64,000 nucleotides of DNA from Candidatus Dadabacteria bacterium CSP1-2 (GTDB lineage: Bacteria > Desulfobacterota_D > UBA1144 > Nemesobacterales > CSP1-2): assembly GCA_001443445.1 (NCBI GenBank), contig LDXN01000001.1:49290-113289 (forward strand), read 5' to 3'. Positions 44,899 through 58,563 of the stretch are shown piece after piece (the stretch's first letter is position 1; each line of letters opens with the position of its first letter). The position numbers and the translations under genes were made by a program. The notes under the pieces were generated by a model. The model did not search any database and was not told the DNA's origin. It saw nothing but the letters and a program-made list of their open reading frames with translations.

Positions 44899-45993
44899 TT
44901 GATGGCTAAAAGAGATTATTACGATATCTTGGGGGTTAAACGGAACTCATCTCAGGAAGAGATAAAAAAGGCTTATAAGAAGCTTGCTTTTGAATACCAT
45001 CCTGATAGAAATCCAGGAAATCCTACGGCGGAAGAGAGGTTCAAGGATATTAACGAGGCATATCAGGTTCTAAGCAACCCTGATAAAAGAGCCCAATACG
45101 ATAGCTTTGGTCATATCTCGGGTGAAGGGTTCTTTTCAGATGTTGATTTCTCAAGGAATTTTAACGACCTTTTTGGAAACCTTTTTGATGAGGTTTTTAA
45201 TGTTGGTAGAAGGCGTCGTCCTGAAAGAGGCATGGATTTAAAATACAATCTTGAGCTTACATTCGAAGAAGCCGCTTTTGGTGTAGAGAAGGAAATAATT
45301 GTCCCGAAAAGGGTGATTTGCTCGGGATGTGGTGGAGGTGGAGCTGCACCTGGGGGGGAAGTAGTATGTGTGATGTGTGCTGGTAGAGGCGAGGTCAGGT
45401 ACTCAGAAGGGTTTTTTGCAATAAGTAGAACATGTTCAAGCTGCGGTGGTGCGGGAAGAGTAATTAAGATTTCTTGCCATCGTTGTAGAGGAGAAAGGCT
45501 TATTACATCTGAGCAAACAATTAAAGTAAAGGTTCCTCCTGGTGTCAGTGAAGGGGCAAGACTAAGAATTCGTGGAGAAGGTGAGGCGGGGTATCTAGGG
45601 GGTCCGAGTGGTGACCTCTATGTCGAAATATATGTAAAAGAACACCCATTTTTCAAGCGTGAGGGAAAGGATATCTTTTGTGAAGTTCCAGTAGGTTTTG
45701 TTCAAGCTGCTCTCGGCGCAGAGATAGAAATTCCAACACTAGAGGGGAAAACTACAATTAGAATCCCACCAGGGACACAGCCTGGACAATCCTTCAGACT
45801 TAAGGGTAAGGGTGTAGCCAGCCTTAATGGAAAAGGAAAGGGTGACCTTTATATAAGGGTACAAGTAGAGGTTCCAGTTAAACTGAATTTAAAACAGAAG
45901 CAGCTACTTGAGGAGTTTGCAAGATCGGGTGAAGGTGATGAGAATCCCACAGTCAAAAAGTTTTTTGAAAAATTCCGTGAGTTATTTGGATGA
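44899..45993 (+). CDS. dnaJ: molecular chaperone DnaJ
   Basis: J-domain 'DYYDILGV...HPDRN', a G/F region and four CxxCxGxG zinc-finger repeats. Confidence 0.9.
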
Positions 45994-46938
45994 TAGTAGG
46001 GACACGTTGCAACGTGCCCCTACCTCAGGTTTCTTACACATTCTCATAAAATCAAATACATCTTTTGTATTCTTAGGGATTCCACCCTGTGCTCCTAGAT
46101 AAGTGCAATTAATTGCAGCGGTAGCTGAAGCGAAATCTAAGGCCTTTTTTATCTCCCAATTTTTGAGCCATCCATAAAGAAGCGCTCCGTGGAATACGTC
46201 TCCGGCTCCTGTTGTATCTACGGCGTCAACTTTGTATGCCGGGGTTTTAATAAGTTCATCGTTATAAATTGTAAGTGAGCCTTTAGACCCTAGTGTTACT
46301 GTTGTAACCTTTGCCTTAAACTCTTTAAGCTTTTTTATTCCTTTAGTAGGATTATTTTCTCCTGTGTACTCTCTCATAAAGTCTTGGGAAGCTATAAACA
46401 AGTCAACTTTACCTTTTAGTTCGTTAATCCCATCAATATAGTTACCTGCATCCATTGAGACCGTAATCCCTAATTTCTTTGCGATGTTGGCAGCCTCGAC
46501 GTTAGCTTCCATAAACAGTTCGTCAAAGTGAATTGCCCTAGTTTGAGCTATCAGTTCCTTTTTTAGATCTTTTGGTTTAAGTGGAGTAATAGTCCCTTTC
46601 GACCAGAAGACCGTTCGCCTACCACTTTTTTTTTCAATTGGAATAATAGAAAGTTGGGTTTTTTTGGATTTTTCTTTGATTAAACCTGAGGTATCTATGC
46701 CTTCGTTTTTAAGGTCTTGGATCAAGATTCTTCCAAGATCGTCATCTCCTACTTTCCCTATAATAGCGACTTTTAATCCTAAACGTGCAAGAACCAAAAG
46801 CGCAGTCGCTGTAGGTCCTCCGCCTCTAATAGTAACATCCTCAAATTCTACCTTTCCTTCAACGTCGGGGAAATAACGAACTTTCCCGAGGTAGTCAACA
46901 CAGACCTGACCAATTCCAACTACGTCAAGCCGGCTCAT
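45982..46938 (-). CDS. PfkB-family carbohydrate/nucleoside kinase (ribokinase-like)
   Basis: 318 aa with the '[12 protein letters not shown]' anion-hole/ATP motif and a GG dipeptide near the N-terminus. Substrate unknown. Its 3' end overlaps dnaJ by 12 nt (convergent). Confidence 0.8.
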
Positions 46939-48575: not shown

Positions 48576-48931
48576 TTCTTTCCTCTTAAAATTAATCTGA
48601 AAAGAATTACCCTTACTTTATGGTGTTGTCAAGAAATAACGGCTATTTTGTAGTTGCAAAGGTGGCTATTCCATCAATTTGAACAAATGCATATGGAGGA
48701 GTCTGGTCATCAGCGGTTAAACATACCCCTGGATCACGCTTCATATTTTTCATTCAAACTGAGTCCGCACCAGCTGTAAATACCAAATCATCTCCGTCTT
48801 TAGGGACTATTTGAAATCCACTTAAATCTTGATTCAGTTTCGTGGTAATATTTACAAAAGAATGAGGTTTTGAATTTCCTGGTTTATTGAATAATGTTTT
48901 AGTCCGATATTTAGAAAATGAGGGTGTAGTC

Positions 48932-49213
48932 ATGAAGGCTCTTTGGAAAAAAGTTGTTTTAGCTGAGAGTAAAGACACGATAGTGGTTGAGGGCAACCAT
49001 TATTTTCCACTGGAGAGTATCAAAAAAGAATATTTCCGTAAAAGTGATACTCATACTACCTGTTCATGGAAAGGGGTAGCTAGTTATTTTGACATTGTGG
49101 TCGCTAATGAGGTTAACAGAGATGCTGCATGGTATTACCCTGAACCAATGGAAGCAGCTAAGCAAATAAAGAATTACATTGGATTTTGGAAGGGTGTAGA
49201 GGTAGTTAAATAA
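48932..49213 (+). CDS. DUF427 domain protein (copy 1)
   Basis: 'MKALWKKVVLAESKDTIVVEGNHYFPLESIKKEYFRKSDTHTTCSWKGVASYFDIVVANEVNRDAAWYYPEP' shares the 'C.WKGVASY...AAW.YP.P' signature with the gene at 54548-55063. Start moved from 48887 to the RBS-preceded ATG at 48932. Confidence 0.7.
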   Translation: MKALWKKVVLAESKDTIVVEGNHYFPLESIKKEYFRKSDTHTTCSWKGVASYFDIVVANEVNRDAAWYYPEPMEAAKQIKNYIGFWKGVEVVK

Positions 49214-49293
49214 AGTTAGTTGCTCTTCAATAAATTCCAGTCTCTAGCATCATGGTTAAAAGGAACCCCACAAAGAACATAATTGAAATGAAT

Positions 49294-49899
49294 TTACACG
49301 ATATGCTTTTTGTACCAATCAATAGCGTTTTCTAGGCGATCGTTACCCCAAAATAACTCAGTGCCTACTACAAAGGTCGGAGCTCCGAAGATTCCGAGGC
49401 TTACAGCTTCTTCTGTTTGTTTGCGAAGATACTCCTTGTTTTCTGATGACTCAGCTCGTGCGATAACTTGAGATCCCTCCTGGCCAATAGAAGTTAAGAT
49501 TTCAGTGATTATTTTAGGATCTGCAATCTCACGATTCTCAGCAAAGTTGGCTCGAAACACCGCCTTAGTGAACTCTGGGCACCATCCCTCAGATGCTGCC
49601 ATGCATGCGACTCGTGCTGCCAGTAGCCCATTTCTTGGGAAATGAGACGGCTTCTTGAAGGGAATTCCATAATTGTCACATAGACGTTCTATATCGCGCC
49701 ACATATAGCGGCCCTTTAAAGGGTAGATATTAAAAGGCGAGGTATTCCATCCCTGGCTGCGGAATATCGGGCCTAGAAGAAACGGCTTCCACTCAACCGG
49801 TACCCCTGCATCTCTAGCCAAGTGTTCTATCCGCATTACGGAAAGATACGAGTAGGTGCTTGCAAACTCAAACCAGAACTGGATACCTTTCACAGCCAT
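49294..49899 (-). CDS. 2-hydroxychromene-2-carboxylate isomerase family protein (DsbA-like thioredoxin fold, kappa-GST-like)
   Basis: 201 aa: 'IQFWFEFASTYSY' N-terminus and 'FGAPTFVVGTELFWGNDRLE' C-terminus are typical of the HCCA-isomerase/DsbA-like family. Confidence 0.7.
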   Translation of the reverse strand: MAVKGIQFWFEFASTYSYLSVMRIEHLARDAGVPVEWKPFLLGPIFRSQGWNTSPFNIYPLKGRYMWRDIERLCDNYGIPFKKPSHFPRNGLLAARVACMAASEGWCPEFTKAVFRANFAENREIADPKIITEILTSIGQEGSQVIARAESSENKEYLRKQTEEAVSLGIFGAPTFVVGTELFWGNDRLENAIDWYKKHIV

Positions 49900-49959
49900 G
49901 CTTTTCTCTTATGTACAAAACTAAACGACTCAGTTATATATTGGATTTCTGCCTATCTT

Positions 49960-50655
49960 CTAATGCTTTCTAAGATAGCAATAAATAAACTTTTGCTTTG
50001 TTCCAGAAGGTGTCAAGTGCGCTTCGCTTGCACTTTCAATCAATTCAAATTCATTACCAAACTCATCATGTAGGCTTTTAGGACTGTATCTTACGACATC
50101 TAACCCACTGCATTTGGGAGGACCATCAGGAGCGAAAGTAGAAATAATTACATGCCCCCTTGGTTTCAACGACTGCTTCACTGTTTCTACATATCTTTGA
50201 CGCTCTTCAGCGCTGGTCAAAAAATGAAAGACCGCACGGTCGTGCCAAAGATCATAATAATGGTGTGGAAGGGCAACTTTTGTGATGTCAGCTTCTATCC
50301 ATGTTACTTCTTCTGCTCGTGAACCTAGCCGTTTTCTTGCGGCATTAATGGCAGCAGTTGAAATATCCAGAACCGTTATGTGTTTGAACCCACTTTCGAG
50401 TAGATCGTCAACGAGAGTCGAAGCGCCACCGCCGACATCAATTATTTGAGCAGTCTTTTCAACTCCAGTCCGTTCAATTAATCGTAACGGCGTTTGCAGA
50501 TGTTCCTGATACCAGCTTACCTGAGTCGAAGCCTTTGTCTTATAGATATTCTCCCAGTGTGATTTGCTATCCACAATATTGTCACCTTTGGCTTTAGAGG
50601 TATAAATAGGATTTGAACTCATAACAACATCAAAATTATACGTTGACCAGCACAT
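49960..50655 (-). CDS. class I SAM-dependent methyltransferase (start possibly at 50622, 'MSSNPIY')
   Basis: Motif I '[11 protein letters not shown]' and the post-I acidic 'VLDIS' of a Rossmann-fold methyltransferase. Substrate unknown. Confidence 0.7.
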   Translation of the reverse strand: MCWSTYNFDVVMSSNPIYTSKAKGDNIVDSKSHWENIYKTKASTQVSWYQEHLQTPLRLIERTGVEKTAQIIDVGGGASTLVDDLLESGFKHITVLDISTAAINAARKRLGSRAEEVTWIEADITKVALPHHYYDLWHDRAVFHFLTSAEERQRYVETVKQSLKPRGHVIISTFAPDGPPKCSGLDVVRYSPKSLHDEFGNEFELIESASEAHLTPSGTKQKFIYCYLRKH

Positions 50656-50725: not shown

Positions 50726-51007
50726 CTATATATACCGTTCAATAAAGAAATTGGCATAATACCTTGGCCAGTCAGCTCCAGGTGCCATGAGCGCCCTTTC
50801 TTTTTCAACCATCACTAGCAAATACACTAGCTCACTCTTAGTGAACTTGGCATTGAGTAACTTTGCAAGCTTCTCAAATAAATACTCTGCATACCAAAGA
50901 GGCCACTCAGGATCTTCCCCATTTGTCTTAATGAAAGCCTTATGATGCTCAGTTCCAGTTTTACGAAAAAAGTCCTCCAACTTTTCTGCGATGTCAATGT
51001 CAGTCAT
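50726..51007 (-). CDS. hypothetical protein (93 aa)
   Basis: A non-overlapping ORF with coding-like composition in a co-directional gene array. I recognise no family. Confidence 0.4.
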   Translation of the reverse strand: MTDIDIAEKLEDFFRKTGTEHHKAFIKTNGEDPEWPLWYAEYLFEKLAKLLNAKFTKSELVYLLVMVEKERALMAPGADWPRYYANFFIERYI

Positions 51008-51109: not shown

Positions 51110-51379
51110 CTAAATCTGCGTAATTAACTTATCGTAGTCAGCATGTGATCCAATCCAAAACCATATCATTACTTCGTCTTCTTGAACACCAATTGCCCGG
51201 TAGCCACGGCCTATACGGACAGAATAGATAGGTTTACTTGAATGAATTTGCTTAAAGCGAAGGCTCGGATGATATGGGTTCTTCTTCCATAACTCAAAGG
51301 CCACTTTTGCTTGGTGCTGGATATGATCTGGCAATTCCTTGAGTGCCTTACGAAAGCGATCAGTGGTATGCGAGATCAT
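51110..51379 (-). CDS. type II toxin, RelE/ParE superfamily
   Basis: 89 aa: 'FRKALKELP...AFELWKKNPYHPSLRFKQIH...YSVRIGRGYRAIGVQEDEVMIWFWIGSHADYDKL' fits the RelE/ParE-like fold pattern. 4-nt overlap with the upstream antitoxin. Confidence 0.7.
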   Translation of the reverse strand: MISHTTDRFRKALKELPDHIQHQAKVAFELWKKNPYHPSLRFKQIHSSKPIYSVRIGRGYRAIGVQEDEVMIWFWIGSHADYDKLITQI

Positions 51380-51594
51380 TGCTCATTTGAGCTAAGAGGC
51401 TTAGTTTCACCTTTTTGGAATTCGGAAATTGCTTCGTCTGCAAGTGCAGCAAGTTCATCTTGAGATTTGCTGAAAGCTTCAGCCCAACGATGTTCCGAAG
51501 CAAGTTCTTCTAAAATGATGGTGCCGATAGCATCCTGCTCACTTTCGGGCAGCTTAGAGACCTCTTCAAATGCTTTCTTTAGAAGCTTTGTCAT
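51376..51594 (-). CDS. type II antitoxin (putative addiction-module component partner of RelE/ParE toxin)
   Basis: 72 aa, acidic: 'MTKLLKKAFEEVSKLPESEQDAIGTIILEEL...RWAEAFSKSQDELAALADEAISEFQKGETKPL'. It lies upstream of, and overlaps, the toxin gene. Confidence 0.65.
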   Translation of the reverse strand: MTKLLKKAFEEVSKLPESEQDAIGTIILEELASEHRWAEAFSKSQDELAALADEAISEFQKGETKPLSSNEQ

Positions 51595-51969
51595 TGCAAA
51601 TAGTTTACCTCTCTGTAGAAAAAATATCTAATTATTTATATTAGCATGCTAGTTATTGTTACATCGTTGCAATAGTTGCAAAGGGAGATATAGAATAACT
51701 CCAAACTTATACGGCTTTGGGGTTGGGCCTTGGATTGCGAATTGTTGAGTTTAAAAAATGTATATCTTTGCATATTCAACCCGGGTAGCCTAGCTATAGA
51801 AATAGAAAAATAATTAAAAAACCATCTATTTCAAGCCTGACCCCATTTTTGCCTTTACTTCTTTATTATTTAATAATGATAGCAAGAATGGTATTGTGTT
51901 TTACTTTACACAAAAAATATAAGCTTAGTAAAAAATGCTTGCTCAAAAGTTGAGCCTTTCAAAAAGCAT

Positions 51970-53157
51970 TTATTCGGATTTAAGCCTCAATCCTTTCGGC
52001 ACAACTACACGTTCCAATAAATCAAACAGTCCTTGCACCAGAAGTGCTAGAACAGCGGCGGGGATAGCGCCTTCTAGAATTAGTCCGACATTATCAAGGC
52101 GGATTCCAGTCAGTATAGGTTGGCCGTAGCCGCCTGCGCCGATAAGCGCTCCAAGTGTTGCAGTACCCACATTAATTACCGCGGAGGTTTTAATACCGGC
52201 AAGGATTGAGCGTGAAGCCATGGGTAGTTCTACAAGTCTTAGACGTGCACCTGAGGGTAAACCCAATGCCTCTGCTGATTCACGAATTCCTACGGGAATA
52301 TCTTGAAGTCCTGTATAAGTATTCCTGACAATCGGAAGTAAGCTATAAAGAAATAGGGCTACAATAGCAGGTGCTGAGCCAATTCCAAGTAGTGGAATCA
52401 TAAACACAAGTATTGCCAACGATGGTATCGTTTGGATTATTCCAACAATTCCTAGGATTGCCTGTCCGATTTTTTCTTTCCTGTGTGACAAAATTCCTAG
52501 GGGAATCGAGATGAATATTGCAGCGGCTAGTGATATAGCAACCAGAAAAAGATGCTGCAAGGTGTTATGAACCAATCGGGTTAGAAAAGTTTCTTCTTTA
52601 GGCTCCGTGGTGATAGATAGATTTTTTTGGAGGAACTCTGAAGCAACAACACTCTCCGGTATTCCATCAAGCTTCACCTCAGCATTCATATCAATCATAG
52701 TTTTTTCTGGAATGCGTCCTTCCAATTTTAAGATGGTTTTTAGCACATCAGGGGCATGCTCCATAAGGTCTAAACGGTAAAGAAGGACTGCGTTGTATTC
52801 TGGGAAGTGATGTAAATCGTCATCTAATACCCGTAATTTATAGTAGCGGATCTCGGCATCGGTCGAATATAGATCGATGACGTCTATGCTTCCACTTTCG
52901 AGTCCTCGGTAGGCTAGGTCATGGTCTAATCCCCTTACGTTTGTCTGAGGGAGATTATAGGGTCTACGAAGGCTAGGCCAACCATCGCCACGATTCATGA
53001 ATTCGTTTGTAAATCCAAACCTAAGCTTAGGATGCTTGCGTAGGTCGGATATTTTAGTGATGCCATGTCTTTCTGCAACATCCTCCCTCATACCTATTGC
53101 GTAGGTGTTGTTAAATCTTAAAGGACGACTCATTTGAATGTTTTTCTCAGCTAACAC
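51970..53157 (-). CDS. betaine-type ABC transporter fused substrate-binding domain + permease (OpuAC-like SBD then TMD); 5' part frameshifted
   Basis: The N-terminal part is the C-terminal half of an OpuAC/ProX-like SBD, followed by a BPD permease domain ('SLLPIVRNTYTGLQDIP'). The SBD continues upstream in-frame to about 53390 ('RIKVGSKAFTESVILGEIVAQLAR...'). A signal anchor 'MVLFGTGLILALLFIANTTAG' starting near 53469 is in a different frame. Confidence 0.75.
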   Translation of the reverse strand: MLAEKNIQMSRPLRFNNTYAIGMREDVAERHGITKISDLRKHPKLRFGFTNEFMNRGDGWPSLRRPYNLPQTNVRGLDHDLAYRGLESGSIDVIDLYSTDAEIRYYKLRVLDDDLHHFPEYNAVLLYRLDLMEHAPDVLKTILKLEGRIPEKTMIDMNAEVKLDGIPESVVASEFLQKNLSITTEPKEETFLTRLVHNTLQHLFLVAISLAAAIFISIPLGILSHRKEKIGQAILGIVGIIQTIPSLAILVFMIPLLGIGSAPAIVALFLYSLLPIVRNTYTGLQDIPVGIRESAEALGLPSGARLRLVELPMASRSILAGIKTSAVINVGTATLGALIGAGGYGQPILTGIRLDNVGLILEGAIPAAVLALLVQGLFDLLERVVVPKGLRLKSE

Positions 53158-53482
53158 CTTTTTGAGTGTTTGTTCATCGCGTATATCTCTATCAGCTAAA
53201 ATTTCCTGAGTGATAGTGCCAGTATATTCAGGGTATATGTCAATTTCCCCTTTTAATAGCGCACTCCAGAGTACACGGGTTCCACCAAGCCCTTTAAGAT
53301 GTTTAACATTAGGCTCTTGGGTTCTAGCGAGTTGTGCTACTATTTCTCCAAGAATTACGGATTCGGTGAACGCCTTCGAGCCTACCTTTATTCGGTTACG
53401 GGCGGGCCTGCAGTAGTGTTAGCTATGAATAAAAGCGCTAATATTAGCCCCGTTCCGAAAAGTACCATGGATAAGGAACACG

Positions 53483-53508
53483 TAGGGGCATAGCATGCTA
53501 TGCCCCTA
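53483..53508. promoter_or_regulatory. 26-bp perfect palindrome GTAGGGGCATAGCATGCTATGCCCCTAC in opu ATPase-permease intercistronic region
   Basis: A perfect inverted repeat. Its core decamer TAGCATGCTA recurs at 51652-51661 in the TA-module promoter region. Confidence 0.5.
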
Positions 53509-53538
53509 CAATAAGAAATCAATCGACAAGTCATGCTA

Positions 53539-54297
53539 CTATTCTCCTAGAGATTCTAATGGGCTACGCTGTGCATTAATGAAACTTGTAACAAATGGAT
53601 CGGTAGGTGTGCGAACAAAATCCATTAGTGTTCCTTGCTGAACAATATGTCCATCTCTAATTAGAACAATTGAATCTCCAAAATAACCTGCCTCACCAAT
53701 ATCATGAGTAACCATTACTACGGTTTTGCCAAGTGTATGAAAAACTTCCTTTAGATCGTTCTGAAGCTCAAAACGAATTAGAGGGTCTAGTGCGCCAAGA
53801 GGTTCGTCAAGTAAAAGGGTGTCTGGGTCTAATATAAGTGCCCGCATTAAGCTAACGCGTTGTCTTTGCCCTCCGGAGATTTGGACTGGATAGCGATCAA
53901 GTGCATCAACGGGAAACTTTGTTAATTCACATAGTTCAACTATACGCTTCCCGATACGATCATTATCCCAACCAAGGTATTTAGCCATTAATGAAACATT
54001 TTCTTTTGCGGTGAGGTGTGGGAAAAGGCCACCATCTTGTATTACGTAGCCCATTCTTCGACGAATTGTAAACAAATTAATTGGTGTGAGCATTTCATCT
54101 TTCACATAGACGTTACCCTTGTCAGGTTTTATAAGTCCTATAATGAGGCGTATCAGCGTGGACTTACCGCAACCGCTAGGACCGATAACTACCGTCGTCT
54201 TATGAGGAAGGATTGTTAAATTAATTGAATCAAGCGCTCTTGTAGAGGCGTATGTTTTAGAGATGTTTTCTAGTTTTATCATGCTACGTAGCATCAA
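53539..54297 (-). CDS. betaine/choline-family ABC transporter ATP-binding protein (no CBS domains)
   Basis: 252 aa: Walker A 'GPSGCGKST', signature 'ISGGQRQRV', Walker B 'LLLDEP'. OpuAA/OpuCA-like, but short. Confidence 0.85.
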   Translation of the reverse strand: MMLRSMIKLENISKTYASTRALDSINLTILPHKTTVVIGPSGCGKSTLIRLIIGLIKPDKGNVYVKDEMLTPINLFTIRRRMGYVIQDGGLFPHLTAKENVSLMAKYLGWDNDRIGKRIVELCELTKFPVDALDRYPVQISGGQRQRVSLMRALILDPDTLLLDEPLGALDPLIRFELQNDLKEVFHTLGKTVVMVTHDIGEAGYFGDSIVLIRDGHIVQQGTLMDFVRTPTDPFVTSFINAQRSPLESLGE

Positions 54298-54377
54298 ATG
54301 TTTATCATGATTTGCAAAGGAAATAAAGTGACTTTAGTGGCTTTTGTCATAACGATTCTGTAATTAGACATGTATCC

Positions 54378-54429
54378 GGTCACGAGCAAGCCTGCCCTGA
54401 GTCAGTCGAAGGGACCCGTGACCTAGCCC
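54378..54429. repeat. MITE family B minimal core copy
   Basis: 'GGTCACGAGCAAGCCTGCCCTGAGTCAGTCGAAGGGACCCGTGACCTAGCCC'. A 7-bp stem GGTCACG/CGTGACC encloses the GTCCTGAG...TCGAAGGGA-type core. Confidence 0.65.
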
Positions 54430-54547
54430 AATATTGTACTGTGGTTGATCTTGCAAACTAATGTTAGATAGTACGCTAGTCTTGCTGGCTAGGTTATGTT
54501 ATGAATGCTGATGGTTTAAATTTTACAAGCCAAAACTCGGAACAGGA

Positions 54548-55063
54548 TTACCACTCCTCTGTTCCTGGTTCTCCCTTGAAGGGTCCCACAATGTCGCTAG
54601 TGATCCAGCCACCGTAATAAATTCCCGGTTGAGGTATCACTCTTTCATCATCAACATAGCATGCATCCATTTTTTGAGGGTAGAAAGCAATATGATCTTT
54701 GATCGATTCATATCCAGGGGTAGGGTCGGGATAAGTCCATGCGGCGTTAGCAGCTTTTTTGTCGCCAACTATTATAGTGTAATAGGAAGCAACACCCTTC
54801 CACTCACACACTGTCTTCTTCCTAGTTCTTATAAGGTTCTCAGTCTTAATATCTTTAGGAGGTATGTAATAAACAGGGGGACCGCTGGTTTCTAATACCC
54901 TTTTTGCGTTGCGCGTTTCTGCAATTACCACGTTGTTAAAGATCACCTTGATGAGCTTTGTCGTGTCCTCAATGCGGGGAGGTCGTGGGTAGTCCCAAAC
55001 AGATTCCTGACCCGGTTCTGGTTGAATACGTTTTGGTTCCATGATAATCTGCCATTTTGCCAC
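54548..55063 (-). CDS. DUF427 domain protein (copy 2), downstream of egtD
   Basis: 171 aa with 'KKTVCEWKGVASYYTIIVGDKKAANAAWTYPDPTPGY', the same signature as copy 1. Confidence 0.7.
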   Translation of the reverse strand: MAKWQIIMEPKRIQPEPGQESVWDYPRPPRIEDTTKLIKVIFNNVVIAETRNAKRVLETSGPPVYYIPPKDIKTENLIRTRKKTVCEWKGVASYYTIIVGDKKAANAAWTYPDPTPGYESIKDHIAFYPQKMDACYVDDERVIPQPGIYYGGWITSDIVGPFKGEPGTEEW

Positions 55064-55214
55064 AAAGACACTAAGACACGAAGGTTGAATCTTGAATAAA
55101 GTAGCCGGAATTCTGACTGCAGAATAAGGGTTATGAGTAGTGTCTTCTTGATTCTGAATATACTTTTATAACTCATATTATTCTTTGTGCCTTTGTGCCT
55201 TAGTGGCTGAATTC

Positions 55215-56195
55215 TTACCGGACTGAAAGATATTGCACGCTGAATTTTCCATCGTCATCAGTCCAAACATGTTTGACTTTAAAGACGTCAGAAACCAGTT
55301 GCTCAAAATCTTCAAGTGTGTACTTATAAGAATATTCGGTCAGGATTCTTTCACCCTTTTTGAAGAAGATTTCGTTGTTATTAATATGTACATACTGATT
55401 TCTTAAGCTTGTAAGATGCATCTCTATTCTTCCTTCGGAACTATTATAGAAAGCATAGTGTCTCCACTGAGCTAGATCAAAATCGGCATCCAGTTCATGA
55501 TTGAGCCGCCTAAGTATATTCAGGTTGAATTCGGCAGTAATCCCGTTCTTATCATTGTAGGCAGCCTCTAATACACTTCTTTCCTTTTTAAGATCTACAC
55601 CGATCAAAAGTCCGCCTGTCTTATCTGCTATTCTTGCAATTAGCTTAAGGAAAGTAGTTGCTTCTTTAGGGGTAAAATTTCCGATTGATGAGCCTGGATA
55701 ATATATAACCTTATGTGACCATGGGAGGTTTAAGTAAGGTAAATCCAATGGCTGAGTATAGTCTGCGCATACAGGCACAATCTTAAGTTGAGGATAATCT
55801 TTTGCAAGTGTAGTTACGGATTTCATTAAGTGCTCGGCGGAAATATCAACTGGTACATATCCAGCGGGTTCTTCAAGATGATCAAGTAATAACCGTATCT
55901 TTTTGCTGCTACCACTGCCGAGTTCTATTAAAAGACATTTTTTGCTTAGGCAAGCTGAGATTTCATCAATATATTTGTTCATAATAGTCATCTCGGTACG
56001 TGTGAGATAGTATTCTTCCAGTTCGCAAATCTGATCAAATAGCGCCGAGCCTCTTTCGTCATAAAAGAGCTTACAGGGGAGTTGCTTTTGCAGTTTTTGA
56101 AGACCTTCTGTCACCTCGGCTAGAAGATTTTCATCTTCGGGTTCAAATTTTTGTAGTGTTAGTAAATTGTTATTCATCGTTCGACTGAGGCTCAC
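55215..56195 (-). CDS. egtD: L-histidine N-alpha-methyltransferase (ergothioneine biosynthesis)
   Basis: 326 aa aligning along its length to mycobacterial EgtD: 'FYDERGSALFDQICELEEYY', 'LIELGSGSSKK', 'YYPGSSIGNFTP', 'ITAEFNLNILRRLNHELDADFDL', 'EGRIEMHL'. Confidence 0.9.
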   Translation of the reverse strand: MSLSRTMNNNLLTLQKFEPEDENLLAEVTEGLQKLQKQLPCKLFYDERGSALFDQICELEEYYLTRTEMTIMNKYIDEISACLSKKCLLIELGSGSSKKIRLLLDHLEEPAGYVPVDISAEHLMKSVTTLAKDYPQLKIVPVCADYTQPLDLPYLNLPWSHKVIYYPGSSIGNFTPKEATTFLKLIARIADKTGGLLIGVDLKKERSVLEAAYNDKNGITAEFNLNILRRLNHELDADFDLAQWRHYAFYNSSEGRIEMHLTSLRNQYVHINNNEIFFKKGERILTEYSYKYTLEDFEQLVSDVFKVKHVWTDDDGKFSVQYLSVR

Positions 56196-57507
56196 GAACG
56201 TCTTTAGCGAGCCTTATTCCCATGAATTGCCATCTTGCATTAGGTGGGAAAAAATTACGATATGTTTTTCTAATGTGAGACATTGATGTGGCGCAGGAGC
56301 CTCCGCGAAGTACCATTTGATTACTCATGAATTTTCCGTTGTACTCTCCTAATGCGCCCGGTAGGGTTTTAAATCCAGGATAGGGGATGTATGGACTCTG
56401 CGTCCATTCCCAAACATCTCCAAACATTTGCAAAAGTCCACTGCTTGAAGAATCTTGATTTAGAGCATGAGGATGAAAGTTGCCACTCTCTACAAAATTC
56501 CCTTCCATTGGTAGTTTAGATGTAGCAATTTCCCATTCAGATTCAGAAGGAAGTCTTGCACCTATCCAGCGGGCATAGGCATCTGCCTCGTAATAGCTAA
56601 CATGGGTGACGGGTTCGTCTAGATCAACTTCACGCATACCTGAAAGTGTAAAATACCACCAATGCCGATCTCTCTTTTCCCAATAAAGTGGAGCTTTCCA
56701 ATCATTTGCCTCAACGGCATACCACCCGTCGGATAACCAGAGCTCTGGTCTTTCGTAACCGCCATCTTCCATAAATGCAAGATACTCACGATTGGTCAAC
56801 AAGCGATATGCTAATTTAAAACTATTTAGATACACCTTATGACGAGGGGATTCATTATCGAAGGCAAAACCATTTCCGTCGTGCCCAATCCAATATACCC
56901 CTTCAGGGAATTGGACCCATCTCACTCCGGGTATTGTAAAAGGCCTAGGGCTATCGTGTTTAATATGAAGATAGACCGGATGGAGGGGATTAACTGAGAA
57001 CACATGTTTAATATCTGTAAGTATTAATTCTTGATGCTGCTGCTCATGATTGAGTCCGATTTCGATTACAGGTGCAATTTCCTCCATTTGTGCCAGATCA
57101 GCCTTTTCAAGAAATTCCAACATGTGCTGGTCTACATAATGTCTATAGGAATATACCTCTTCTACAGTTGGTCTTGATAAAAGCCCGCGTTCTGGGCGAG
57201 AGTGCCTTTTCCCAACCTGAACATAATAAGAGTTAAAAAGGTAGTTATACTGTGGATGTAGTGACCTATAGTGTTTATTTGCTTTATTAAGTATGAATGT
57301 TTCAAAGAACCAGCTTGTATGCGCAATGTGCCATTTTGTCGGACTAACATCAGGCATTGATTGAATGACGTAATCCTCTGTGGCAAGTGGTTTGCAAAGG
57401 GTCTCAGTGAATTCTCGAACGATTTGATATCGTTCGGCTAAAGAACTGTTAATAGAATTACTTTGATCTTTTTCTTCAACTTTTGTTATGTTTTTTTTCG
57501 TATTCAT
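56170..57507 (-). CDS. egtB: ergothioneine biosynthesis sulfoxide synthase EgtB (DinB_2 + FGE-sulfatase domains)
   Basis: 445 aa: DinB-like N-domain with 'HEQQHQELILTD' and a C-terminal FGE-like domain 'GDVWEWTQSPYIPYPGF...RGGSCATS'. Overlaps egtD by 26 nt. Confidence 0.9.
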   Translation of the reverse strand: MNTKKNITKVEEKDQSNSINSSLAERYQIVREFTETLCKPLATEDYVIQSMPDVSPTKWHIAHTSWFFETFILNKANKHYRSLHPQYNYLFNSYYVQVGKRHSRPERGLLSRPTVEEVYSYRHYVDQHMLEFLEKADLAQMEEIAPVIEIGLNHEQQHQELILTDIKHVFSVNPLHPVYLHIKHDSPRPFTIPGVRWVQFPEGVYWIGHDGNGFAFDNESPRHKVYLNSFKLAYRLLTNREYLAFMEDGGYERPELWLSDGWYAVEANDWKAPLYWEKRDRHWWYFTLSGMREVDLDEPVTHVSYYEADAYARWIGARLPSESEWEIATSKLPMEGNFVESGNFHPHALNQDSSSSGLLQMFGDVWEWTQSPYIPYPGFKTLPGALGEYNGKFMSNQMVLRGGSCATSMSHIRKTYRNFFPPNARWQFMGIRLAKDVREPQSNDE

Positions 57508-57651
57508 CTTCTTCTCACTTATTTTATATCAAATTTTCCTTGTAAATACAAGTGTACTTCTGTGCATTATCTTTACTTTAATTTCTAACTTCTTTAGGTA
57601 TTATTTATTGAAGTTTGAAAAATATATAGCTGCTATTATCAATCTATCCTT

Positions 57652-58563
57652 ATGAAAAATAATAGAATCCATGTTGTTCTTTTCATCATAACTTTGGGTA
57701 CAACTTTTTTAGCCGGGTTTCTTCAAGGTGGGAATGTCACAAGCGGAATTGCATTTTCAGCAGCCCTCATATTTATTCTAGGCGCGCATGAAATGGGGCA
57801 CTACGTTTACGGGAAAAGGTATGGTGTTGATATTACACCTCCATATTTCATCCCAGCACCGCCGGTTATTTCTCCTATAGGTACATTTGGCGCCTTTATA
57901 AAAATTAAGTCTCCCATAGCTACCAAAAGAGCCCTTTTCGACATAGGAATAGCAGGTCCTCTGGTAGGTATTTGTGCGGCAATTCCTGTAATTATAATAG
58001 GAATCAAGCTATCGAGTGTTGTTGATCCTTCGAGTCGCGAATTTGAGGGTGGGATGACCCTCGGTTCACCTTTAATTTTCTCTTTTCTTGCGGATAGTTT
58101 TTTTGGGAAGGTTCCGGATGGTAAAGACCTTCTTCTACACCCCGTTGCATTCGCAGGATGGATCGGACTCTTTGTCACTGCGCTTAACTTGATTCCAGCA
58201 GGACAGTTGGACGGCGGTCACATTATGTATGCCCTTTTTCCAAGAAAATGGCATCGTCGTGCATCTCTTTCTATGATTTTTCTCCTACTCATACTTGGTA
58301 TTGGCACTCAGCCGATTATACAACTATTACAATCGCTATGGAGAGGAATACCACTCGAATCATATAAAGATATATTTACCTTTGATGGATGGCTCGGATG
58401 GGTTATGTGGGCGATGCTACTTTCTATCATGGGGACAAGACACCCGCCTACTATGGATGATAATATTCCGCTTGATGGTAAGAGAAAGCTTTTGGGTGTA
58501 ATAGCGCTTCTTGTCTTTATCGGCTGCTTTACACCTGTGCCAATAGGTTTACCGAAATCGTAG
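57652..58563 (+). CDS. site-2 protease (M50) family membrane metalloprotease
   Basis: 303 aa, polytopic, with 'GAHEMGHYVYG' (HExxH) and 'NLIPAGQLDGGH' (LDG motif). Confidence 0.75.
   Translation: MKNNRIHVVLFIITLGTTFLAGFLQGGNVTSGIAFSAALIFILGAHEMGHYVYGKRYGVDITPPYFIPAPPVISPIGTFGAFIKIKSPIATKRALFDIGIAGPLVGICAAIPVIIIGIKLSSVVDPSSREFEGGMTLGSPLIFSFLADSFFGKVPDGKDLLLHPVAFAGWIGLFVTALNLIPAGQLDGGHIMYALFPRKWHRRASLSMIFLLLILGIGTQPIIQLLQSLWRGIPLESYKDIFTFDGWLGWVMWAMLLSIMGTRHPPTMDDNIPLDGKRKLLGVIALLVFIGCFTPVPIGLPKS

Follow-up and report, generated by a model that had tools for sequence, protein, structure and literature searches.

Gene order at the locus

The window analysed here is a 64,000-nt stretch of DNA from Candidatus Dadabacteria bacterium CSP1-2 (contig LDXN01000001.1, positions 49,290 to 113,289 of the forward strand), and all unprefixed coordinates below are counted from its first letter. 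The subject is a set of minus-strand genes in which two ergothioneine-biosynthesis genes, egtB and egtD, are followed by a gene for a DUF427 protein, a gene for an ATP-binding cassette (ABC) ATPase without CBS domains, and a gene in which a solute-binding domain is fused to a permease. Sequence comparisons showed the last two to specify a binding-protein-dependent ABC importer that has an extracytoplasmic quaternary-ammonium cage and whose family is coupled genomically to EgtD plus EgtB or the selenoneine proteins SenA/SenB. The genes and domains are given below; L numbers designate related loci and P numbers database proteins.

56170..57507, minus strand: egtB (TIGR03440, 597.5 bits, cut-off 360; Pfam DinB_2 and FGE-sulfatase)
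55215..56195, minus strand: egtD (TIGR03438, 401.7 bits, cut-off 290.9; PF10017)
54548..55063, minus strand: DUF427 gene, long form, 171 aa as listed (PF04248, 123 bits)
53539..54297, minus strand: ABC ATPase, ProV-like, 252 aa (PF00005, 113 bits; TIGR01186, 220 bits)
53388..53534, minus strand: 5' fragment of the fusion gene, a 48-aa open reading frame (ORF) with a signal/anchor peptide and a premature TAA
53390..53391, minus strand: frameshift site, a 1-nt deletion compared to intact orthologues (alignment with L001 and L002)
52624..53394, minus strand: solute-binding domain, OpuAC family, Tyr-cage type (PF04069, 189 bits)
51970..52506, minus strand: permease domain (BPD_transp_1) with the stop codon of the fusion gene (PF00528, 73.8 bits)

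By profile, the product of 56170..57507 is assigned as the sulfoxide synthase of ergothioneine biosynthesis (EgtB) and that of 55215..56195 as the hercynine-making histidine N-alpha-trimethyltransferase (EgtD). The two equivalogs are adjacent on one strand, overlapping by 26 nt, as in the egtB-egtD core of an ergothioneine operon; the adjoining ORFs that were scanned yielded no egtA, egtC or egtE. The gap between egtD and the DUF427 gene is 151 nt. An earlier, sequence-only reading of this DNA had listed the five genes in the same order, and the ORF list and profile searches bore it out, as they did its domain order for the fusion (PF04069, then BPD_transp_1, in one frame) and its description of the ATPase as free of CBS domains. 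The ATPase had no CBS Pfam match; the CBS pair is considered absent because the match covered positions 5-233 of the 363-position ProV model and only ABC_tran was found. The permease domain gave weak matches to ChoW/ProW-type permease models. The gene order had also been called unusual, a description that did not hold: the same order was found in the relatives L001-L005, and hence it is no one-off. The ATPase gene adjoins the fusion gene in almost all of the 80 related loci described below.

Signals between the genes were sought with Rfam (whole window at gathering thresholds, and 53350-57800 at E ≤ 1), a sigma-70 scan and a consensus scan for terminators. Rfam yielded no riboswitch or other known RNA in the spacers. 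The sigma-70 scan gave fewer promoter-like sites in the window than in shuffled sequence, and none on the minus strand in either the egtD-DUF427 or the DUF427-ATPase spacer. The consensus scan detected no terminator-like site between the genes upstream of the permease. The spacer concerned and the one terminator-like site that follows the genes are:

54298..54547, minus strand: DUF427-ATPase spacer, 250 nt, with no Rfam match and no minus-strand terminator-like site
51941..51955, minus strand: terminator-like hairpin with a T-rich tail, directly 3' of the permease stop (consensus scan; pattern match only)

In the Dadabacteria-like relatives L003-L005, the position of this spacer is filled by a gene resembling those of extracytoplasmic-function (ECF) sigma factors (L003 7721..9019, L004 8477..9241, L005 2677..3246). 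It lies between egtD/DUF427 and the ATPase gene, contains a weak Sigma70_r4_2 match, DUF6596 and TPR, and is a candidate for a dedicated regulator.

The interrupted fusion gene

The fusion gene had previously been read without mention of a break, with its binding domain starting at about 53390. That position coincides exactly with a break in the frame, and the gene is not intact in the window. Locus L001 (96.8% DNA identity over 5.75 kb) reads GAAGTAAAGG where the window reads GAA-TAAAGG; one G is absent at 53390, and this deletion is the sole coding indel in five genes. It splits the signal sequence from the binding domain and brings in an immediate TAA stop. The 48-aa ORF left upstream matched residues 1-48 of P0001, an intact orthologue of 521 aa, without a single difference, featured a hydrophobic segment at residues 19-37, and was preceded by AGGAGA 8 nt ahead of its ATG. 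P0001, the closest database protein (99% identical), reads through the site uninterrupted (...ANTTAGPPVTEVKVGSKAFTES...), and the fusion gene is intact in near-identical relatives. Beyond the break, the frame of the binding domain was open from 53418, with no ATG, GTG or TTG ahead of 53157; use of the next in-frame start would drop 78 residues, three of which (K, F and Y) belong to the pocket. Programmed frameshifting was considered and rejected, as ACC GAA TAA A lacks the form of a slippery heptamer and the intact relatives have one base more. As assembled, the permease gene of the window is inactivated by the 1-nt deletion, which may be either the mark of a recent pseudogene or an assembly error.

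It was therefore weighed whether the module in the window is a decaying remnant, i.e. whether the frameshift is real and the transporter is without current function in this organism; the chance of this was judged to fall slightly short of even. The immediate stop, the 78 codons lacking a start (cage residues among them), the improbability of programmed frameshifting and the long intact ORFs that make up the remainder of the window all favor decay. Set against these, the lesion stands alone among the coding sequences compared, the frame past the lesion shows no other damage and is 99% identical to P0001, and the pattern also fits a consensus error or a mutation that is very recent or at strain level. 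In any case, a frameshift in this copy is irrelevant to the function of the family.

One further feature was located at the start of the interrupted gene:

53482..53509, no strand assigned: perfect 28-nt palindrome GTAGGGGCATAGCATGCTATGCCCCTAC, with a single occurrence in the window and 0 matches expected by chance

It lies just past the ATPase stop and within codons 1-20 of the fusion gene, counted from the start called in close relatives. The N-terminal extension that it encodes was present in P0001-P0003 and absent in P0004 and P0005, which are 85-91% identical.

Class and fold of the binding domain

A sequence search of the PDB with the binding domain returned 27 matches at E ≤ 0.001. The top match was S. 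pneumoniae EgtUC (SpEgtUC; 147 bits), followed by L. monocytogenes BilEB (144 bits), H. pylori EgtU (HpEgtU; 139 bits) and a sensor scaffold derived from Thermoanaerobacter OpuBC (131 bits). A. fulgidus ProX (AfProX; 127 bits) and B. subtilis OpuBC/OpuCC (107-110 bits) were found lower, and YehZ-like and Brucella/Agrobacterium-type binding proteins reached 80-86 bits, vs. 127-147 bits for the proteins from AfProX to SpEgtUC. The AlphaFold2 model of the domain had a confidence score (predicted local distance difference test) of 92.7. Its TM-scores were 0.88-0.91 to apo-HpEgtU and BilEB and 0.85 to AfProX, although such global scores do not tell proteins that bind ergothioneine from those that bind glycine betaine. 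Trp-box OpuAC and E. coli ProX chains were absent from both the 27 sequence matches and the 50 best structure matches.

On the strength of the sequence matches and the superposition of the model, the domain is assigned to the Tyr-cage subgroup that was named F-III by Zhang et al. 2022 (PMC9732360) and holds AfProX, OpuB/C and EgtU. The label “OpuA-type” that the transporter had been given was imprecise, as the PDB matches are EgtUC, BilEB, AfProX and OpuBC/OpuCC; neither the Trp-based cage nor the C-terminal CBS pair of the ATPase that characterize the OpuA/ProU type was found.

The ligand pocket

Residues that recognize ergothioneine in the published studies (PMC9732360 and PMC12922746) were mapped onto the window protein and 82 relatives, and SpEgtUC numbering is used for the positions. 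In SpEgtUC, Y341, Y419 and Y443 with N339 make up the cage, K242, T296 and R379 clamp the carboxylate, and E375 and T275 contact the imidazole (PMC9732360). The equivalents of K242, T296, Y341, E375, R379, Y419 and Y443 were conserved in 83/83 family members; the N339 column holds a conserved N or D, and the T275 equivalent is T throughout except for S in two members. Hence, the Type II, F-III aromatic cage (the three tyrosines plus one more aromatic, with the N339 equivalent) is present, as are the electrostatic clamp and imidazole contacts formed by K242, R379, E375 and T275. The alignment shows that the binding domain carries the trimethylammonium cage and carboxylate clamp of amino-acid-betaine binders.

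The remainder of the pocket is distinctive. Three residues of SpEgtUC, G244, F293 and Y337, are ergothioneine-specificity determinants that separate EgtU from the glycine-betaine-specific AfProX (PMC9732360); neither the invariant G244 nor the Y-to-F switch of F293 with Y337 was found in the family. A CH-S bond to the thione is made by residue 243, which is Ile in S. pneumoniae and Pro in H. pylori. Its equivalent is Ala in the window and differs between family members (K, A, S, T, Q, N, L and others), another departure from EgtU. In HMMER alignments to 1SW1/1SW2, the family possessed the four-Tyr cage of AfProX, Phe at the G244 and Y337 equivalents, and the K13/T66/R149 clamp. The wall contributed by the second lobe is that of neither protein: where AfProX and SpEgtUC have M-(E/Q)-P (M-E-P in AfProX), the family has an invariant L-D-H-D. 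The His in this motif (GLDHDLAYRG) is family-specific and replaces P401 of SpEgtUC and I451 of HpEgtUC, a position that adjoins the thione sulfur. Distant egtD-linked relatives also retain it. Taken together, these alignments indicate a family pocket that copies neither EgtU nor ProX.

The earlier comparison with EgtUV can accordingly be kept for the shared cage and clamp residues; it fails for the domain order, which is reversed, and for the G244/F293/Y337 positions, which hold AfProX residues. The comparison of the domain with the OpuAC, ProX and EgtUC cages, which had been proposed to decide between ligands, gave no firm clustering with either glycine-betaine/choline binders or ergothioneine binders. 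The pocket was invariant across members from many phyla, whether egt-linked or not, which suggests one ligand for the whole family.

An alternative is that the transporter imports osmoprotectants in general (glycine betaine, proline betaine or choline) and lies near egt genes owing to a shared stress response. The cage and clamp of the N-terminal lobe do follow the AfProX pattern (K-x-F, LGGT, YxEYTGT and FxxxY). However, the invariant D-H-D motif of the second lobe differs from AfProX, the ATPase has no CBS domains, and the invariant pocket, maintained at 57-72% identity across phyla, speaks for a single specific ligand. In longer ProV-type ATPases, a CBS pair is linked to osmotic gating, and this pump is without that pair.

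Family size and gene neighborhoods

The family of the fusion protein is very large: all 8000 scored candidates had E ≤ 1e-20, and the best 120 were at least 66% identical. Sources name the members “glycine betaine” or “osmoprotectant” transporters, or give the generic “ABC transporter permease subunit”. Neighborhoods were sampled in one genome per species (GTDB representatives), giving 80 loci with orthologues 57-72% identical from at least nine phyla. Among the taxa were Dadabacteria, Thermodesulfobacteriota, Planctomycetota, Latescibacterota, Nitrospirota, Myxococcota, Acidobacteriota, Ignavibacteria/Bacteroidota, Gemmatimonadota, Alpha- and Gammaproteobacteria, and others.

Apart from the transporter's own ATPase, clustering of the ORFs in these loci gave EgtD (22 loci), EgtB-like proteins (17 loci) and DUF427 (8 loci) as the recurrent families. 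The next real family occurred in 4 loci, and all others in at most 3. Two ORF families beside the transporter, F4 and F6, were discarded as antisense artefacts in high-GC loci. When reference sequences were searched with tblastn, egtD was found within 3.4 kb of the pump in 23/80 loci; among loci with at least 3 kb of sequence on both sides, the linkage was 18/58. Our estimate of the chance expectation, assuming one randomly placed egtD per genome, is ~0.2% per genome; the raw count of linked loci is inflated by relatedness. The linked EgtD genes that were tested proved to be true EgtD (TIGR03438, 358-406 bits). In two additional loci, egtD was degraded or egtB was truncated where the contig stops.

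In the 23 linked loci, the partners were EgtB (13 loci), SenA with a SenB homologue (4), a SenA-like protein (1), and EgtD alone or in a fusion (5). The EgtB of L068 was called by NCBIfam and the remaining EgtB assignments come from tblastn. The linkage extends to the selenium analogue, i.e. to the selenoneine genes. In L015 (8013..11288), L051 (5726..9090), L031 (4898..7383) and L012, the transporter is next to egtD and senA/senB in place of egtB. The partner in L015, L031 and L051 is the selenoneine synthase SenA (NF041186, 503-518 bits, cut-off 420), and SenA of L012 was assigned by tblastn. SenB lies beside SenA in L015 and L051 (TIGR04348, 387-396 bits) and, by tblastn, in L012 and L031.

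At least six arrangements were observed among the linked loci: egtB-egtD-(DUF427 or the sigma-like gene)-pump, pump-egtB-egtD, pump-egtD, egtD-pump, convergent and divergent orders, and orders with sen genes. Linked members were scattered over the family tree with some local clustering. That the linkage recurs in varied orders and phyla suggests that it is under selection. When metagenomes were scanned reciprocally with EgtD as the seed, a transporter of the same type, 43-52% identical, was recovered in 8-9/80 loci; those whose match spans the motifs retained GSKKFTE, YPEYTGT, FNNTYA and the His. The proposal that the transporter is functionally tied to ergothioneine/hercynine metabolism is thus strongly supported: egtD, with egtB or senA/senB, is the sole strong recurrent neighbor, in 23/80 loci from at least nine phyla, and the same transporter type is recovered from the EgtD side.

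These neighborhoods also bear on the osmoprotectant alternative. Some members carry the source names “glycine betaine ABC transporter” or “osmoprotectant transport system”, and nearby egt genes are missing from about 70% of the loci. Yet no gene for betaine synthesis, betaine catabolism or osmotic stress recurs; only egtD, egtB and senA/B do so, in many arrangements and phyla. On balance, a general osmoprotectant importer was considered unlikely, while still the stronger of the competing ligand assignments.

The second such assignment is histidine, which the pump would import to feed EgtD with its substrate. EgtD is the constant partner, and in several loci (L006, L027, L039 and L043) it stands beside the pump alone. 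Some OpuAC-family binding proteins, e.g. those of the HutX type, are reported to bind histidine. Moreover, ergothioneine in EgtUC sits much like histidine in HisJ (PMC9732360). The invariant presence of a complete four-aromatic cage plus Asn, a hallmark of quaternary-ammonium binding, is against histidine, as are the far lower scores of the YehZ-like and Brucella/Agrobacterium-type proteins noted above. A histidine importer was judged very improbable.

Unusual egtD genes were seen at two loci. In L057 (3400..5878), one long ORF holds EgtD followed by an EgtB/SenA-like domain; the locus is high in GC and the ORF call uncertain. If the call is correct, EgtD and EgtB would be fused in a bacterium, which recalls fungal Egt1. 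In L041 (7787..8429), from a deltaproteobacterial metagenome-assembled genome, the transporter-linked egtD is divided between two short ORFs; it is probably frameshifted, another case of decay in a linked module.

Proposed function

Together, the ATPase and the fusion protein make up a binding-protein-dependent ABC importer, which would consist of two fusion chains and two CBS-less ATPases. A Sec-type N-terminal signal places the binding domain on the outer side of the membrane, where its own permease anchors it; the architecture agrees with this, as a signal segment and a hydrophilic binding domain precede the transmembrane segments, whose hydrophobic stretches begin at residue 331 of the orthologue. 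Because conserved genomic partnership is limited in this family to egtD with egtB or senA/senB, the family may represent the uptake arm of hercynine-derived betaine metabolism. The imported ligand would be hercynine and/or its 2-thio and 2-seleno derivatives, ergothioneine and selenoneine. EgtB and SenA both use hercynine as their substrate, and oxidation of ergothioneine also yields hercynine. Producers are reported to secrete ergothioneine, and betaine importers have been suspected of its re-uptake. Thus, the pump may recapture leaked or secreted product or allow hercynine to be used again; import of hercynine would save three molecules of S-adenosylmethionine each time. We put an even chance on the module being an importer for hercynine-type betaines that would serve in salvage or recapture.

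Several observations weigh against this assignment. The N-terminal half of the binding domain matches AfProX best (60 bits). The changes G244 to F, F293 to Y and Y337 to F occur in 83/83 members and yield the AfProX residues F15, Y63 and F107; in SpEgtUC, G244F lowers affinity ~100-fold, and I243A, which introduces the residue found in the window, lowers it ~30-fold. No egt gene was present within 10 kb in 55-57/80 loci, and the window copy of the fusion gene is broken. No experimentally characterized protein is among the family members. Finally, the precedent for producers importing their own product comes from compatible solutes, not from ergothioneine.

In the literature searched (most subscription journals lay outside its scope), no paper was found in which an OpuAC-family importer or DUF427 is connected with egt or sen clusters; a preprint on selenoneine mentions only a putative selenate transporter. 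Bacterial ergothioneine uptake has so far been described only for EgtU, in non-producing bacteria, and no dedicated ergothioneine exporter or salvage route is known in producers. A family that travels with egtD/egtB and senA/senB across phyla is a concrete candidate for this missing salvage step. The broadest form of the proposal is that a pan-bacterial family of fused importers annotated as “glycine betaine” transporters is dedicated to the uptake and recycling of hercynine, ergothioneine and selenoneine in producers, with a pocket (a ProX-like cage plus an invariant His/Asp wall) that differs from that of EgtU; this is advanced tentatively, with somewhat less than even confidence. If it is true, thousands of “glycine betaine transporter” annotations need to be re-labelled, and the family becomes a genomic marker of ergothioneine/selenoneine cycling in soils and sediments and a second binding scaffold for ergothioneine/selenoneine biosensors. 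It would also add a salvage loop to thio-/seleno-histidine metabolism and a second, independently evolved mode of ergothioneine recognition. Were the ligand glycine betaine, the strong linkage to egtD would still want explanation.

DUF427 and the surrounding window

The DUF427 protein had been counted as part of the module. It is present and recurs, in 5/80 transporter-seeded loci and in 6/80 EgtD-seeded loci (three of the latter without the transporter), which is beyond chance, and its association with egt genes is regarded here as loose and restricted to certain lineages. The view that the module requires DUF427 was rejected: it is a weak partner, and three distant homologues, 70% identical, stand alone in Coleofasciculus, Anaerolineales and Gloeocapsopsis with no nearby egt or ABC genes. 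Relatives of the DUF427 protein are 164 aa long with a conserved C-terminal GGWITSDIVGPFKG tail, and long-form homologues 66-75% identical were found in cyanobacteria and Chloroflexota. The sole solved relative is 3DJM, an uncharacterized protein.

A second, short DUF427 gene (108 aa, plus strand) is situated ~3 kb beyond the permease. Between it and the permease are genes for a DsbA-like thioredoxin-fold protein, a class I S-adenosylmethionine-dependent methyltransferase and a 93-aa protein with no family match (48887..50655 and 50726..51007). Synteny of this block was confined to L001 and L002.

The permease is directly followed, at 51110..51594, by two overlapping genes, one for a ParE-like toxin (PF24732) and one for a 72-aa candidate antitoxin. 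In L001, a 95%-identical relative, the same spot is occupied by an RHH_3/PemK pair, which suggests a variable site of insertion for toxin-antitoxin modules. Farther away, at ~45900..46000, the orientation of the genes switches: all large ORFs are on the plus strand up to 45993 and then on the minus strand up to 57507. The GC skew passes at the same place from clearly positive to slightly negative.

Comparison with known systems

The closest known systems are the EgtUV transporters (S. pneumoniae SPD_1642-1643, H. pylori EgtUV and L. monocytogenes BilE), which are ergothioneine-specific and, as here, are encoded by two genes with a fused binding domain and permease. They supply the top PDB sequence matches (139-147 bits, ~33% identity) and the top structure matches, and they share K242, T275, T296, N339, Y341, E375, R379, Y419 and Y443 with the family. 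In EgtUBC, however, the permease precedes the binding domain, whereas the order here is signal peptide, binding domain, permease. The family also has G244 replaced by F, F293 by Y, Y337 by F and P401 by the invariant His, with position 243 variable. The described EgtU proteins come from Firmicutes and Helicobacter that do not produce ergothioneine; by its biosynthetic genes, the present family occurs in producers, mostly of Gram-negative and environmental phyla. Because the fusion order and specificity residues do not fit the definition of EgtU, the module is not filed as EgtU.

AfProX has the same residues F15, Y63 and F107, along with K13, T66 and the four-Tyr cage, and is the best match for the N-terminal lobe (60 bits). 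It differs in being a stand-alone, unfused protein, in having M-E-P where the family has D-H-D, and in its overall score, which is under that of EgtUC (127 vs. 147 bits); no egt link has been described for AfProX. OpuBC and OpuCC of B. subtilis, which bind choline and a broad range of betaines, are 29-30% identical and share the F-III subgroup and the aromatic cage. They are separate lipoproteins that match with 107-110 bits, and their ligand is oriented by backbone contacts with no Lys clamp (PMC9732360). Most distant are OpuA of B. subtilis and L. lactis and ProU of E. coli, which have in common with the present module the PF04069 superfamily and the ProV-like ATPase core; they differ in the Trp side chains of the cage and another orientation of the ligand (PMC9732360), and in the CBS domains that are part of the full-length ProV model.

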